From an uncultured Actinomycetes bacterium (GTDB lineage: Bacteria; Actinomycetota; Thermoleophilia; UBA2241): a DNA stretch of 64,000 nucleotides. Location of the stretch: assembly GCA_963767005.1 (NCBI GenBank), contig CAVYCN010000011.1, positions 32,001 through 96,000 of the forward strand, written 5' to 3'. The translations under genes were made by a program, and so were the position numbers. Positions 42,800 to 49,692 of the stretch are shown piece by piece; the first letter of the stretch is position 1, and each line of letters begins with the position of its first letter. The notes under the pieces were generated by a model. It was not told the origin of the DNA. It saw only the letters and a list, made by a program, of their open reading frames with translations, and ran no database searches.

Positions 42800-44392
42800 T
42801 CAGGCCTCGTCCACCGGCGACCCCGCCGTCGCGCCCACGGGGGCGGCGACGCCCGGCCCGATGGCCGCATCGGCGTCAATGGCGAGCAGGTCGCTCTCCT
42901 GTACGGCCTGGCGCGCCAGGTTGCGCTTGCCGATCAGCCAGAACACGACGCCGGTGACGATGAAGAAGGCGAGGGTGCCCAGGGTGACGGCCTCGAAGAA
43001 CACGCGCGAGACACCCCACGTCGACTCGATGTCGTAGCTCATACCAAGCATGTGGTCGAGCAGGCCGGGCCACAGCAGGGTGATCGCCGTGAGCACGATG
43101 ACCGTCTCGGCGAGCACCACGCAGACCCACAGGCCGACGGTGCCGCCCGGCACGCGGTACGGGCGCGGCCGGTCCGGATACCTGCGGCGCAGCGGGATCA
43201 CGGACGGCAGCATGAAGAAGTACATGAGCGCCGTCAGCGAGATGACCAGCGTCACCATCACGGTGAAGAAGTTCGCCAAGCTGCCGCTCGTGAGCTCGAA
43301 CACCAGCACGACGAAGACCGAGCCGATGATCGCCGAGACGACGTTCATGATCACCGGCGTGCCGGTGCGCTTCGAGAACCTGCCGAGCCACAGCGGGCCG
43401 GCGCCGTCGAGACCCGCTACCGCCTGCACGCGCACCGCGCCTTGCAGCCAGACGCCGCCGGCGCTGATCACGGTCAGGATGATGAGCACGCCGATCAGGT
43501 CGCTGAGCCCCTTGTTCACGCTGCCGTGCAGCACGCCGGCGGCCGCGAAGTACGCATCCGCGAAGCCGCTGACGTTGCCGATGCCCTTCAGCGGGATGAC
43601 GAGCAGCACGCCGAGGATCAGCGAGCCGGTGACCAGGCAGGCGACGATGCCGGAGCGTACGATCATGACCGGCACGTCGCGCTGGGCGTGCTTCATCTCC
43701 TCGGCGGCGCCGTTGGCGAGCTCGAAGCCGACAAACAGGAACTGCAGCAGCCCGATGAGGGCGAGGAAGCCGGTGACGGACGGCTTGACCGACGACAGCG
43801 TCGCAGTGCCGGCCGGCTTGCCGTGGCTCACCAGGAAGGCGACGACGAGCGCCAGGAAGATGACCAGCATCAGCAGGCGCACGATCGTGCCGAGTATGCC
43901 GGTCCACTTGCCCCACTTGAGCTCGACAAGCGAGAGGCCGACGATCGACCACACGACAGCGACGCCAACGACGATCGAGGGCAGCGTGCCCATCGGGTTC
44001 TTCAGGTAGAAGGTGTTGATCGTCGTCACGACGGCGGCCGCCAGGGTGCCGCCCATCCACACAGGGTTGCTCATCCAGTAGAAGACCGAGGTGAGCGCGC
44101 CGGCCAGGCGGCCGAACGCCATGCGCGGCCACACGTAGGGCCCGCCCTCGACCGGAAACGTCGAGCCAAGCTCGGCGACGATCATGCCGTAGGGCAGCAG
44201 CCAGACCAGCAGCACGACGATCAGCCAGAAGAACGTCTGGCCGGCGCCGTAGGCGGCGGTCAGGGCGATCGTGTCGAGGCTGATGAACGCGGCGATCGTG
44301 AAGAAGACGATGTCGAAGCGCGTCAGGACCTTGCGCATCTTGGTGCGCTCCCGGCCCATCGCTCCGGCCGGGTTCTGCTCGAGCGTGCTCAT
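42800..44392 (-). CDS. APC-family permease, candidate methylamine importer
   Basis: AELGSTFPVEGGPYVW, FVGFE and RPYRVP; starts 16 nt after the mttB stop. Confidence 0.9.
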   Translation of the reverse strand: MSTLEQNPAGAMGRERTKMRKVLTRFDIVFFTIAAFISLDTIALTAAYGAGQTFFWLIVVLLVWLLPYGMIVAELGSTFPVEGGPYVWPRMAFGRLAGALTSVFYWMSNPVWMGGTLAAAVVTTINTFYLKNPMGTLPSIVVGVAVVWSIVGLSLVELKWGKWTGILGTIVRLLMLVIFLALVVAFLVSHGKPAGTATLSSVKPSVTGFLALIGLLQFLFVGFELANGAAEEMKHAQRDVPVMIVRSGIVACLVTGSLILGVLLVIPLKGIGNVSGFADAYFAAAGVLHGSVNKGLSDLIGVLIILTVISAGGVWLQGAVRVQAVAGLDGAGPLWLGRFSKRTGTPVIMNVVSAIIGSVFVVLVFELTSGSLANFFTVMVTLVISLTALMYFFMLPSVIPLRRRYPDRPRPYRVPGGTVGLWVCVVLAETVIVLTAITLLWPGLLDHMLGMSYDIESTWGVSRVFFEAVTLGTLAFFIVTGVVFWLIGKRNLARQAVQESDLLAIDADAAIGPGVAAPVGATAGSPVDEA

Positions 44393-44408: not shown

Positions 44409-45878
44409 TCAGGCGACGCCGACCAGGCGGTCGGTGCGCTCGACGATCGCGTGGACGCGCGCGGCGATGTCCGCCGGCACGGGCTCGGGCCGGTACTCGC
44501 GCACGACCTCGCGGGCCTTCTCGACGCACGAGGCGTAGAGCTCCCGCGCGCCGCGCTGCTCCCACTCCTCGCGCACGCGGCGGTCGAGCACTTCCGGCTG
44601 TGAGAGCTCGCGCATGTGGCGCAGGGTGGCGTCGAGCGACAGGAAGTCGCCGAAGCTGCCCACGCCGATGATGTCGTCGACCGCCAGGCTCTCGTCGTCG
44701 ACGCGCATGCCGCCGATCAGATGCTTGATCATGCGGGCGAACTCGTTGTCCATGACGAACTGCCCGCAATCGAAGGTGACGCCCGATTCGATCATCCCCG
44801 CACCGTAGATCAGGTTGGCCCCTGCCAACGCTGCCGTCAGTCCGGTGAGGGTCTTCTCGTGACCGACCTGCGCGTCACCGAGCTTGGCATCCGTCTACAA
44901 CCCGGCAACGAAGCTCGGCAACAGGTAGCGGCGCGCCATCTGCGCCACCGCCGCGCTGATCAGGGCGATCTCGGGCGAGCCGACCGAGGCGGCCGCGAGC
45001 TTCAGGTCCATGGCCGTGGTCGACGAGCCGTACATGACCGGGCAGCCGCGCTCGGTGAGCTGCGCCAGCGTGATGCCCGACAGCACCTCGGCGTTATGGG
45101 TGACGAGGGTGCCGGCCAGCGTGACCGGCGAGGAGCCGCCGGCCATCGCCATGCTCAGGATGTTGTCGGGGATCCACCAGCGCGAGGATTCGATGATGAC
45201 CTCGGTCGCGTCGCGCGGGAGCTTCAGCGGACTCACCGGGCAGACGCCGCTGTAGAGGATCGGGCGCCGGCGGAGCTCGTCGGCGCCGCCGACGATCTCC
45301 GCCGCCATCTCGAAGATGGCGACGGTCTCGGCGCGCGACAGCGGACCGACGCCGATCGGCTTGGTCGTGTTCAAGAGCTGGACCTCGGTGTTGTGCACCG
45401 CGGCCGTCTCGGGCGGCACGTCTTTGGCGCCGACCGCGATCTCGTGGGTGTCGAACTCGGAGAGGTAGTCGTTCAGGCGGGCGATGTCGGCGACGTCCTG
45501 CTTGGTCGAGTCGCGGTACTCGCCGGTCTCGACGTCGATCACGCGGATGCCCTCGCTGAAGTTCGTGAAGGCGACGCGGCCCGGCTCCATCACGAAGTCG
45601 TTCTCGGGGATGCGCCCGTAGAGCGTGTAGCGGCTGGGTGCCGACGCAATCGCGTCCTCCGCCACATGCGGCGGGATGCGCACCATGTGCGTCTCGCGGT
45701 CCGCGACGCAGCCGCCGTCGGAGAAGATGTCGAGCGCCTCGTCGTCTTCGACGAACACGCCGGCGCGCTCAAGCACCTCGAGGCTCGCGAAGTGGATCTC
45801 CTCGACCTCAGACTCGGTGAAGACGCTGACGTGAAGACCGCCGCTGCGAGGCCGCCCGACGGACCGATTGCGCTTCAC
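44409..45878 (-). CDS. mttB: pyrrolysine-containing trimethylamine:corrinoid methyltransferase (in-frame TAG at 44895-44897)
   Basis: ORFs 44895-45884 and 44409-44828 are one frame: ...[49 protein letters not shown]..., matching the MttB Pyl context; also PVSPL, SMAMAGGSSPVTLAGTLV and GSPE; 489 aa with amber at codon 328. Confidence 0.95.
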
Positions 45879-45900
45879 ACGCACCCCCTCGCATCTGTTG

Positions 45901-45918
45901 CTTAGTCAGATAACTAAG
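45901..45918. promoter_or_regulatory. palindromic operator CTTAGT-N6-ACTAAG (copy 1)
   Basis: cttagtcagataactaag; 22 bp (45897-45918) identical to 49633-49654. Confidence 0.88.
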
Positions 45919-45924
45919 TCTGGT

Positions 45925-45952
45925 ACACTAGCAGGTGCGACCCCCCTGTCAA
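45925..45952 (-). promoter_or_regulatory. mttB promoter
   Basis: TTGACA, 16 nt ending TGC (extended -10), TAGTGT. Confidence 0.75.
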
Positions 45953-46064
45953 GCAGTGGGCGGCGCTCGGGACGACGGCAGGGGCGGCCGCCGGCAGGCA
46001 GGCTGGAGCCGGCGGCCCCCAAGGGCAGTGGCAGGCGCAGAGGCGGCCAGATATCCTCACGCAC

Positions 46065-46697
46065 GTGGCGAGGTACGAGATCCCGATCGAAGACCCGACG
46101 CCGCACCTGGCGCCGACGGCGGCGCGCATCCTCGAAGCCGCTCGGCGCATCCTGGCGCGCGACGGCTTTCGCGCGCTCACCTTCGCCAACATCGCCGCCG
46201 AGGCACAAGAGAACAACGCGCTGATCCGCTACCACTTCGGCAGCAAGGCCGGCCTGCTCGCCACGCTCATCGACTCGGTGCTCTACCTCGAGAGCGTCGA
46301 GCTGATCGAGGAGCTCGCGAGCGTGCCGCCCGGCGACGAGCGTCGTCGAGCGCTCTTCGGCCTGCACGAGACCTACGTCAAAGACATCGACGGCTACCAG
46401 ATGTTCTACGAGCTCATCCCGCACATGCTGCGCGACCCAGAGCTGCGGCCCCGCCTCGCCAAGCTCTTCGACTGGTACCGCAAGCTCGACGCCTGGGCCC
46501 TGGGCGCGCAACCGGGCCCCGAGCACCCCACCGAGCTCGAGCCGCTCGCCCTGCTCACGGTGGCGATCGCCGACGGCGTTGCCCTACAGGTGCAGGCCGA
46601 CCCCGAGCTCGACGTGCGGCCCGCCTTTCGCATCTGGCACCAGCTCATCCTGAGCTACCTCGACGACCACCGCCCCGGCGAGGGGCCGCAGAGCTAG
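46065..46697 (+). CDS. TetR-family regulator
   Basis: RILEAARRILARDGFRALTFANIAAEA...IRYHFGSKAGLL HTH; divergent from mttB. Confidence 0.93.
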   Translation: MARYEIPIEDPTPHLAPTAARILEAARRILARDGFRALTFANIAAEAQENNALIRYHFGSKAGLLATLIDSVLYLESVELIEELASVPPGDERRRALFGLHETYVKDIDGYQMFYELIPHMLRDPELRPRLAKLFDWYRKLDAWALGAQPGPEHPTELEPLALLTVAIADGVALQVQADPELDVRPAFRIWHQLILSYLDDHRPGEGPQS

Positions 46698-46754
46698 CCG
46701 CGTCGCGGCGGCTGCGGCTCAGAGCAGCGTCGTGCCGGTTGCCGCGGCGATGAG

Positions 46755-48224
46755 CTAGCCGCGCAACTCCGCGTCGGCCGCGGCGACGATGCGGCGCAGC
46801 TCGGCCGCCTTGTCGGGGGCGAGTGGTGCCGGCTCATAGTGGTCGAGGATGTCGCGGCCGCGCTCGCGCGCCACCTCGACGGGGTCGCGGTAGTGGGCGC
46901 CGTCAGGGCCGATCTCCTGGCCGATCGAGCGCTCGACCGTCTCCTTCATGTGCCGGCGCGTGTGCGGCTGCCCCAGGAAGTGCCCGCCCGGTCCGACCGC
47001 GTCGATCACCTCGAGCGCGAGGGTCTCCTCGTCGAGCTCGACGTCCCTGAAGACGCTGGCGGCGCGGTGGTAGAGGTCGTCGTCGAGCAGCATGTGCTCG
47101 GGCGTGAAGAGCTGGTAGCGGTTGGTGAGCCCGATCGTCGTCATGAGCTCGGAGCCGACGACGCCGGCGGTCATCAGCGTGTGGGCGGTCTCGGCGGCGG
47201 CCAGCCAGGTGCCGGGCAGGTCGTCGTCGGTGCCGGCGTAGCCGGTCATCGCCGGCAGGCCGAAGTGGTGGACGAGCTCGCCCGGCAGAAAGAGGCCGCG
47301 GTGGTTGAGGGGCGCCGTGATCAGGGCCGCCGTGCGCGGGTCGGCGTGCACCGGCAGCGGGAAGAGGATCACCGGGCAGCCGGGATGGGCGAGCTGCAGC
47401 AGCACCGTGGCGCTGATCAGCTCGGCGAAGCCCATGACGTAGGCCCCGGCCTTGGTGGCCGGCGCGGTGGTGCCGAAGGTCGGCATCGTCACGAAGCAGA
47501 CTGGCACGCCCGCTGCGGCGAACACCAGGGCCGCCTCGACACCGTCTCTGTCGTTGACGAGGGGCTGCACGGTGCCGATCAGCGCGCTGAGCGGGGAGCG
47601 GCGGCGGAGCTCGCCGGCAGAGCCGGCGACGACCGCCGCCATCTCGACCGCATACCGAGCTGCCCGCTCGCCCTGCACCATGCCCTGCAGGTGCTTGGCG
47701 GTGTTGTTCCAGCCCGCCTCGAGCTCGTGGAGCGTATGCGTGTCGCCGCACTCCGAGGCCGCCACGTTGGGCCACCAGAACTGCACCGAGCCCAGGTAGT
47801 CGATCAGGCGGGTGATGGCTTCGAGGTCAGCCTTGGTCGACTGGCGACGCTCGCCGGTGTGCCAGTCGACCACCTCGGTGCCGCAGCCGTTCGTCGTGTT
47901 GAAGGTGGCGCCGCTCGCAAGGTCGAGGTCGCGGTCGCGGTCGCGAGAGCCGAGCCAGAACCGGCGCGGCGCGCGGCCGAGCGCTGCCATGACCAGGCCG
48001 GGGGCGAAGCGCACGACCTGCGTGGCGCGCTCCACCCGCGCGCCGTGCTCCTCGAGGATGTCGAGCGCCTTGGGCGAAGCGAACCGCACGCCGGTGTGCT
48101 CGAGCACGTGCAGCACCGCATCGCGGTAGCGATCGAGGCGCTCGGGCGCGTAGAAGGTGACGGCAAAGTCGGAGCGCAGCGGCAGCAGCGGCTGCGGCAC
48201 GCTCAGGTCGAGCTGCGAGCTCAT
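46755..48224 (-). CDS. non-pyrrolysine MttB-superfamily methyltransferase
   Basis: VLEHTGVRF...KALDILEEHGA, QPL, GTTAPAT and VGPGGHFLGQPHT; FGLPAMTGYAG-TD places Gly at the Pyl position; ATGA overlap with mtbB. Confidence 0.9.
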   Translation of the reverse strand: MSSQLDLSVPQPLLPLRSDFAVTFYAPERLDRYRDAVLHVLEHTGVRFASPKALDILEEHGARVERATQVVRFAPGLVMAALGRAPRRFWLGSRDRDRDLDLASGATFNTTNGCGTEVVDWHTGERRQSTKADLEAITRLIDYLGSVQFWWPNVAASECGDTHTLHELEAGWNNTAKHLQGMVQGERAARYAVEMAAVVAGSAGELRRRSPLSALIGTVQPLVNDRDGVEAALVFAAAGVPVCFVTMPTFGTTAPATKAGAYVMGFAELISATVLLQLAHPGCPVILFPLPVHADPRTAALITAPLNHRGLFLPGELVHHFGLPAMTGYAGTDDDLPGTWLAAAETAHTLMTAGVVGSELMTTIGLTNRYQLFTPEHMLLDDDLYHRAASVFRDVELDEETLALEVIDAVGPGGHFLGQPHTRRHMKETVERSIGQEIGPDGAHYRDPVEVARERGRDILDHYEPAPLAPDKAAELRRIVAAADAELRG

Positions 48225-49618
48225 GTCCTTTCCCTCGCTCTCACGTGACGCCGGAAACATTCGACCGAGTTGACCGGGATGTCCAGCGTCTCGGCGACGT
48301 GGAACTTGGCCTCGATCGCGCCGGGCTCGTCGGGGTACGTCAGGTCCTGTACCTGCAGGCGGCCGAGGCCGAGGTCGCGGCGCAGGTCGTGCATGGCGAC
48401 CGGGTCGCTCAAGTCGTCCAGCGAGCAACCGAGCTTGTCGGCGACGTAGCGCTTGGCCTGCGGGAGGCGCAGGCCCCGGGTGATCTGCATGCGGGCCACC
48501 AGATCTCCGGCGGTCCGCATCCCGCCCATCCCCGAGGCGAGCGCGTGGGTGGAGGCCATCCCCAAGGGATCCCCCACGCCGACCTACAAGCCGTCGAGCT
48601 TGAGGATGTCCACGAGCGCGCGCGAGGCGCGTGAGGTGGCGTCGACCGGCGGGTAGGGCGTCATCGGCACACCGCCGACGCCCATGCCGGCGTTCATGTG
48701 GACTGGGATGGTCGACTCGGCGGTCACCGGCTTGACGAGGGCACAGGCGCGCGCCGTGTTCCAGGCGAGCGACTTCGTCGTATTGACGTTGACCGCGGGA
48801 CCGAAGATGGTGGCGCCCGCCGCGGTCACCACCCGGAGCTGGTCGAGCGGCCACATGCCGGCCAGACGGCGGCCCTCGTAGGCGAGCTCGCCGTGCATGC
48901 CGAGCACGAGCTCGGCCGCCTGCCCGACCTCGACGCCGATGTCGGGCCAGCGACTTCGCACCTCACGCACGACGTGCAGCGTGGCCAGCAGGTCGGCGTC
49001 GCCGGCGGCGCCGGCGGTGTCGAAGTCGAGGCCGTCGGCGCCGGCCGCGATCATGGTCTCGGCGACGACCAGCATGTCGCGCTCGAGCAGCGGCATGGCC
49101 TCTTCCTGGGCCGCGCGCGCCTCGTCGATCCTGCCGAGCGGCAGGAGCTGCGACCAGTTGCCGACCGGACCGTCGGGCTGCGAGTAGCGGCCCAGGTCAG
49201 GCATCGCACCGTAGTTGAGCGGCACGACGGTCTGAAGCTGGGCCTCCTTCATCATCTGGGCCTGGAACGACAGGACGGTGCGCACCGCCTTGTAGGAGTA
49301 GTCGTGGTGCCAGAGCTCGACCGAATCGGCGCCGTGGTGGTTCTGGTAGACGACCTGCTCCATCACGGGAAAGCCGATGTCGCCGTTGCCGGCGCCGTCA
49401 AAGCTGAGCACGACCTCGTCGCCGCAGTCGACCGAGCTGAACTTCGCCGGCGAGGTGAAGATGTCGAGCAGGTGGGCGATCTCGTCGGCGGCGAGCGGCG
49501 GCACCTTCGCGCGGCGCACCGCGGCCTCGACACCCGCGTTCAAGTCGGCTTCGATCTCGGCCGCGGTCAGCGCCACGCGAGAGCCGTCCCCGAGCCGCGT
49601 AGCAAAGCGCTGTGCCAT
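48221..49618 (-). CDS. mtbB: pyrrolysine-containing dimethylamine:corrinoid methyltransferase (in-frame TAG at 48584-48586)
   Basis: TRLGDG, DYSYK, YGAMPDLG, FDTAGAAGDAD, HMNAGMGVGGVPM...VDATSRAS...KLDGL-TAG-VGVGDPLGM...GMRTAGDLVARMQ...AKRYVADKL; 465 aa with amber at codon 345; GGAGG SD. Confidence 0.95.
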
Positions 49619-49636
49619 GACCGCCTCCGGGAGTTG

Positions 49637-49654
49637 CTTAGTCAGATAACTAAG
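49637..49654. promoter_or_regulatory. palindromic operator CTTAGT-N6-ACTAAG (copy 2)
   Basis: Identical to 45901-45918; lies between the promoter and SD of mtbB. Confidence 0.88.
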
Positions 49655-49662
49655 ACCTGGGG

Positions 49663-49692
49663 AACTTAGCCGGACGGCGGGCGGGTTGTCAA
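49663..49692 (-). promoter_or_regulatory. mtbB promoter
   Basis: TTGACA, 18 nt, TAAGTT. Confidence 0.72.

Follow-up and report, generated by a model that had tools for sequence, protein, structure and literature searches.

The timing with which methylamine methyltransferases are made in pyrrolysine-encoding bacteria is poorly defined, and a 64,000-nt window (the whole stretch of DNA analysed here) from the 3,436,494-base genome of an uncultured Actinomycetes bacterium of the class Thermoleophilia raises this question in concrete form: what is the role of a 22-base-pair (bp) box standing, letter for letter the same, at the head of two operons for pyrrolysine (Pyl) enzymes, the trimethylamine (TMA) methyltransferase MttB and the dimethylamine (DMA) methyltransferase MtbB, with the gene of a TetR-family regulator lying between them? 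Expression of Pyl mttB and mtbB by peatland Actinobacteriota has already been reported in PMC10805028, and the literature searched, which did not extend to most subscription papers, contained no account of bacterial Pyl methyltransferases under the control of a TetR. Judging from the sequence, we give a probability of about 85% to the reading that the adjacent TetR binds the box as two dimers and blocks both methyltransferase operons until a methylated amine releases it. What the locus offers is one defined protein together with its candidate 22-bp site and a handful of ligands to consider; the regulatory logic itself is textbook, an ordinary local switch with a candidate amine sensor set upon an unusual pathway.

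A preliminary description of the window had reported the box as an identical 22-mer present twice, with the core palindrome CTTAGT-N6-ACTAAG, and had noticed it nowhere else. Both copies are found exactly as it wrote them (Table 1), and the core has these two matches only in the window even if two mismatches are allowed, the mean for shuffled sequences being 0.16. Over the whole genome the core is again matched exactly twice, and CTTAGT and ACTAAG do not occur anywhere at the other spacers from 0 to 14. The sequences flanking the two copies are unlike each other, so a duplicated promoter could be discarded as the origin of the pair.

The core palindrome as first described is present, but its symmetry was understated, since the box is in fact built as 8-2-8 plus a one-sided extension of 4 nt. 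The consensus of 72 sites, read in the direction of transcription, is GTTAGTTATGTGACTAACTAAT, with the units TTAG, TTAT, a variable middle, CTAA and CTAA. The inverted repeat formed by units 1 and 4 is kept in 69 of the 72 sites and that of units 2 and 5 in 63, flanking units fitting in 13 and in none, respectively. The box is better read as two overlapping 16-bp inverted repeats with a 4-bp offset in a site of about 22 bp, i.e. as the layout of a dimer-of-dimers TetR operator, and it is this offset that makes the identity of the window copies run 4 nt beyond the palindrome on one side only. Each dimer would read TTA[G/T]-N8-CTAA, and the two would sit 4 bp apart on the box.

The occupancy of two TetR dimers per operator is a prediction made by analogy. 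According to PMC5397183, the operator of Bacillus halodurans FadR comprises two 16-bp pseudo-inverted repeats with a 4-bp offset in a site of 21-22 bp bound by two dimers, and the same two-dimer mode is described for QacR-type proteins in PMC6449355. The subclass to which FadR belongs (QacR, CgmR, CprB, SlmA, and Ms6564) has the same five-unit layout as the 72 sites, the stoichiometry being a prediction for the latter. The system of the window departs from that of FadR in sequence, in recognition helix, in targets and in the ligand proposed, and identity between the two proteins is low (17% in the Foldseek alignment with 5GPC). Another parallel is mycobacterial BkaR, which PMC3920632 presents as an actinobacterial TetR that represses the divergent operon next to it through an AT-rich palindrome bounded by GTTA and TAAC; the core of that palindrome, GTTA(N)T(N4)A(N)TAAC, has 16 bp, two fewer than the 18 bp of the GTTAGTTA-NN-TRACTAAC found here, and BkaR serves keto-acid metabolism. 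A Pyl-containing TetR of Methanosarcina acetivorans is treated in PMC3639795.

The same letters might instead work at the RNA level, folding near the transcript start into a hairpin that serves stability or protein binding. The single orientation of local sites relative to the transcript would suit such a role, as would one mirror pair that alternates between U-A and U-G in 70 of 72 sites. The other mirror pairs, however, are often broken (paired in 51, 50 and 46 of 72), the conserved feature being sequence rather than pairing; at the distal site described below, relatives G131 and G134 have the best match in the opposite orientation; and a layout that repeats every 4 nt fits contact between protein and DNA, as does co-variation with the TetR helix. 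We therefore hold a hairpin in place of a DNA operator to be very improbable.

The co-variation comes from comparison of loci. In four loci with the closest TetRs (65-89% identity), two copies of the box are found in the same places, so the absence of the motif upstream of orthologs, named beforehand as a result that would speak against the assignment, is not what the orthologous loci display. A profile built from these eight sites in four relatives scored the window sites at 32.8 bits and the rest of the genome at 14.1 bits or less, and ten column-shuffled profiles produced 0-1 matches at 20 bits or more. A scan of a genome collection supplied 79 loci, mostly from Thermoleophilia or Actinomycetota. 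With the four training loci and one lacking upstream DNA set aside, all 37 loci whose TetR has the recognition helix EN[PNAG]ALIRY (helix A) possess a box in the 500 bp preceding tetR, versus 0 of 37 with other helices. The second copy is present in 31 of 41 helix-A loci, 30 times before mtbB and once before a solute-binding gene; among the ten loci devoid of it, five contigs end early, one locus has no operon and four have no methyltransferase nearby. Where the helix differs, this position is occupied by a different box: the GTYATCCR-NN-YGGATRA type for ENKASIRY, TTTGTCCGGACGGACAAA for ESKASIGY, and TTGA-type boxes for ENKALI[AG]Y. At least five helix classes show such a joint change of helix and box, which is also seen between the sister proteins L084 and L085, one clean contrast. 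The box stays beside the TetR even if the downstream gene has changed to mtbB, to an mttB of another clade (L054) or to genes other than methyltransferases (L077, L080, L082, and L083), and mttB genes 74-83% identical to that of the window but adjoining ENKASIRY or ENRASIRY TetRs are without it. No other TetR paralog found in this genome carries the helix of the window TetR.

From ortholog conservation and helix co-variation it is very likely that the 22-bp box is the operator of the adjacent TetR, as the preliminary description had supposed. Alternatively, some regulator encoded elsewhere might bind the box, which would merely travel with tetR. Such a view draws on the small number of independent events behind the co-variation, and on a related weaker box at a distant permease, by which paralogs may read similar sequences. 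It has to contend with the tracking of box type by helix type over all the classes mentioned, sisters included, and with the confinement of the only two genomic sites to within 3.6 kb of the tetR start, and is in our judgement unlikely.

The boxes begin 6 and 8 nt below the predicted −10 elements (TANNNT) of promoters 1 and 2, in agreement with the earlier placement at 6-8 nt downstream of the −10 of TTGACA promoters. A strict sigma-70 scan scored no promoter at either predicted site, hence the promoter calls rest on conservation in homologous loci, where TTGAC/TTGAA and TANNNT are each found upstream of the box at 39 of 41 tetR-side sites and 29 of 31 second sites. A palindromic site thus lies over the predicted promoter or start of an adjacent target (divergent in the case of mttB), as is usual for TetR repressors and their operators, and the TetR would repress by occluding the transcription start site. 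A two-way −10 of the form TANNNTA is seen in 35 of 41 tetR-side promoters versus 0 of 31 second-site promoters, which suggests that operator 1 overlaps the −35 element of tetR itself; autoregulation of tetR through operator 1, with its −35 inside the box, would follow from such an overlap and is uncertain.

Which signal might lift the repression? The window TetR has an N-terminal helix-turn-helix (PF00440, 41.8 bits versus a cut-off of 24) with the recognition helix ENNALIRYHFG, and an all-helical C-terminal domain of BetI-type fold; its predicted model contains nine helices with a predicted local distance difference test (pLDDT) score of 85.8, and the list of fold matches is filled by TetR-family proteins. 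The best four PDB sequence matches (E about 2e-8) all represent one TetR of Saccharomonospora viridis, whose entries name trimethylamine (4NEL), choline (4KWA) and benzamidine (4JNN) in their titles, the fourth being 4ICH; literature searches aimed at this protein brought up unrelated texts only. Its Trp/Tyr positions align with Y111, F114, W137, and Y138 of the window TetR, and all 35 orthologs retain these four residues as well as H101 and D142. Conserved aromatics and an acidic residue would fit a cage for a methylammonium ion. Induction by methylamine would accord with the genes regulated and with this weak match (about 22% identity), and a methylated amine would free TetR from DNA, allowing both operons to be transcribed; TMA or DMA as the inducer is, in our estimate, slightly favoured.

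The same operator and repressor could, though we consider this less likely than not, respond to a substrate of the non-Pyl MttB, e.g. a quaternary amine or other N-methyl compound, or to a product of the pathway. Nearly every orthologous locus has a non-Pyl mttB behind mtbB, the nearest solved homolog binds choline and benzamidine too, TetRs with the same box elsewhere adjoin hydantoinase and amidohydrolase genes, and the 41 MttB-family and 17 TetR matches in the genome suggest a division by substrate. In favour of TMA or DMA, each box is followed first by the gene of a Pyl enzyme, MttB and MtbB being described as specific for tri- and dimethylamine in PMC10805028, and all five TetR groups linked to methyltransferases retain H101, W137, and D142, which are replaced in carbamoyltransferase-linked paralogs. 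As for the choline-responsive repressor BetI, likeness consists in the TetR family, in BetI-type C-terminal clusters appearing as Atlas look-alikes and in the context of amine catabolism; unlike in BetI, the TIGR03384 match covers the N-terminal region only, and the targets here are corrinoid methyltransferases with a permease, not bet genes.

Several observations weigh against the repressor model as a whole or in its parts. The box label needs only two changes on a tree of C-terminal domains (79 rows, L118 omitted), so kinship inflates the helix-box counts, and the 19-bit cut behind them was chosen after the scores had been seen (positives from 20.6 upward, negatives up to 17.6). Degeneracy affects the outer repeat of the window copies, whose last unit, GCAA, has two mismatches. 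A second candidate −10 for tetR just before its start codon weakens the autoregulation step. Regarding the ligand, the PDB match to the S. viridis TetR is only about 22% identical; in the Foldseek search that protein takes rank 2 behind an uncharacterised TetR, with the multidrug binder EbrR close; and BetI models score far under their cut-offs (TIGR03384, 28.3 versus 201.3 bits; PRK00767, 23.7 versus 118). Finally, the distant TetRs of L077, L080, L082, and L083 (44-53% identity) share helix and box but have hydantoinase/oxoprolinase, amidohydrolase and solute-binding genes as neighbours, and no pylB was found in their genomes, so the box alone implies no methylamine ligand.

How far would the regulon of this TetR extend? 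The preliminary description expected the motif before pyl, corrinoid and ramA genes, which the scans do not support. A 22-position profile run over the whole genome at 10 bits or more returned only the two known sites (plus shifted and reverse overlaps of them), none in the region of pylS, tRNA-Pyl and pylBCD. Of 29 relatives, 24 yielded pylB, in 27 loci altogether, and in none of these loci is there a site at a distance of 1.5 kb or less from the gene. In relatives, corrinoid genes come under the box only where they are inside the local operon. The regulon here therefore appears to consist of two operons, Pyl-mttB with the permease and Pyl-mtbB with the non-Pyl mttB, leaving the pyl genes outside.

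As a tool for locating further members the motif succeeded in part: it adds a distal permease as a candidate in some relatives and gives no site at the pyl genes. A degenerate pattern applied to the genomes of the 29 relatives revealed the local sites plus a few extras. Five of the latter, weaker than the local ones, are 21-25 kb away from pylB; they directly follow a TATCGT hexamer, and an APC permease or an lrp-permease unit comes next. That permease copy is present in 13 genomes, and the distal site scores at least 18 bits in 5 of them and is degenerate in 8; in G131 it precedes lrp. Distal boxes of 18-28 bits were recorded at L192, L193, L194, L200, L203, and L207 (relatives G136, G134, G130, G133, G121, and G131, respectively) in the fhs-folD region, at the above distance from pylB where one contig holds both. 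They may belong to a TetR of the window type or to a paralog. In this genome no box accompanies the best match to the distal permease, a paralog of 53% identity.

Could the TetR, through the box, be master regulator of the whole pyrrolysine system (pylTSBCD, corrinoid, ramA)? Upregulation of pyl genes on TMA in Methanosarcina acetivorans, reported in PMC12626013, and the weaker box on the same contig as pylB in five relatives would speak for it. The lack of further sites in this genome and around pylB in the relatives speaks against, and so do the position of the distal box before a permease or lrp-permease unit, with an opposite-strand gene between it and pylB in two annotated regions, and the promoter-like sequence without a box that pylB has of its own in many relatives. 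We consider so broad a role most doubtful, although the TetR may act on the pyl genes indirectly, and control appears to be placed on the enzymes rather than on the amber-decoding machinery. The gene preceding pylB is nitroreductase-like in many relatives, where the promoter-like sequence is TTGCC-N17-TACACT without any operator-like box. In this genome the pyl genes are split among unrelated genes on contig C3 (pylS 236183-236905, tRNA-Pyl 242986-243058, and pylB about 245237-246496). Behind the lrp-permease unit of the same contig, at C3:257254-259106 (L176:13255-15107), two open reading frames of 270 and 310 amino acids have no Pfam match above cut-off; frames of similar size and place also occur in G131 and G136.

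Features around both boxes are collected in Table 1. The mttB and mtbB genes each have one in-frame TAG, that of mttB aligning to the X (pyrrolysine) position of PDB 7XCL, and the genome encodes pylS, pylB and pylC above cut-off plus tRNA-Pyl on another contig, so that both targets qualify as Pyl methyltransferase genes. Spacing from the ribosome site and comparison with orthologs indicate that the true start of mttB is probably at 45878. The permease, separated from mttB by a 17-nt gap, is probably co-transcribed with it.

Table 1. Annotated and predicted features around the two boxes (window coordinates)
Feature	Position	Strand	Remarks
APC-family permease	42800..44392	-	PF13520; same neighbour in orthologous loci
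Pyl-type trimethylamine methyltransferase mttB	44409..45884	-	PF06253; in-frame TAG 44895-44897
Operator 1, 22 bp, predicted	45897..45918	.	predicted about +1 to +22 of Pyl-mttB/permease transcript
Possible opposite-facing -10 TACACT for tetR	45924..45929	+	two-way TANNNTA in homologous promoters
Predicted promoter 1	45925..45952	-	TTGACA 45947-45952, 16 nt, TG-extended TAGTGT 45925-45930
TetR-family regulator, 210 amino acids	46065..46697	+	Pfam TetR_N; between two operons, divergent from mttB
Non-pyrrolysine MttB-superfamily methyltransferase	46755..48242	-	PF06253; without internal stop; overlaps mtbB end
Pyl-type dimethylamine methyltransferase mtbB	48221..49618	-	PF09505, E 1.4e-160 with TAG read through; TAG 48584-48586
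Operator 2, identical 22 bp, predicted	49633..49654	.	predicted about +3 to +24 of Pyl-mtbB/non-Pyl mttB transcript
Predicted promoter 2	49663..49692	-	TTGACA 49687-49692, 18 nt, TAAGTT 49663-49668

In the genome as a whole, 7 of the 41 MttB-family matches possess one in-frame TAG, 7 mtbB-like genes have one in-frame stop each, 16 corrinoid-cap matches were counted next to the 17 matches to the window TetR, and tRNAs include both pyrrolysine and selenocysteine types. The natural series of helix and box variants is in itself a useful dataset for TetR specificity. On a broader, tentative view, to which we assign slightly less than even chances, the TetR would found an expanded subfamily of Thermoleophilia repressors that sense methylamines. 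Every member would have a helix and operator code to itself, and together they would ration costly Pyl enzymes operon by operon and leave pyl genes unregulated. If true, this would be the first defined transcription factor-operator pair for bacterial pyrrolysine methyltransferases and would yield a ready-made orthogonal set of TMA/DMA biosensors.

Some paralogous modules deserve separate mention. At C3:156184-162300 (L037:6185-12295) an ENKASIRY TetR is divergent from Pyl-mtbB, Pyl-mttB, a corrinoid protein gene and a non-Pyl mttB; this module has a single 22-bp box of its own, at C3:157004. In L097, L110, L112, and related loci, ESKASIGY or EPKASIAY TetRs with 4-nt periodic boxes of their own are located between a carbamoyltransferase and a histone-deacetylase-family gene, L097 also having a carbamate kinase, which suggests polyamine or agmatine catabolism. 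Another AT-rich sequence, with AGTTGACA...TGTCAACT symmetry, occurs in the genome of the window at C5:50876-50917 and, in opposite orientation, at C13:33427-33468.

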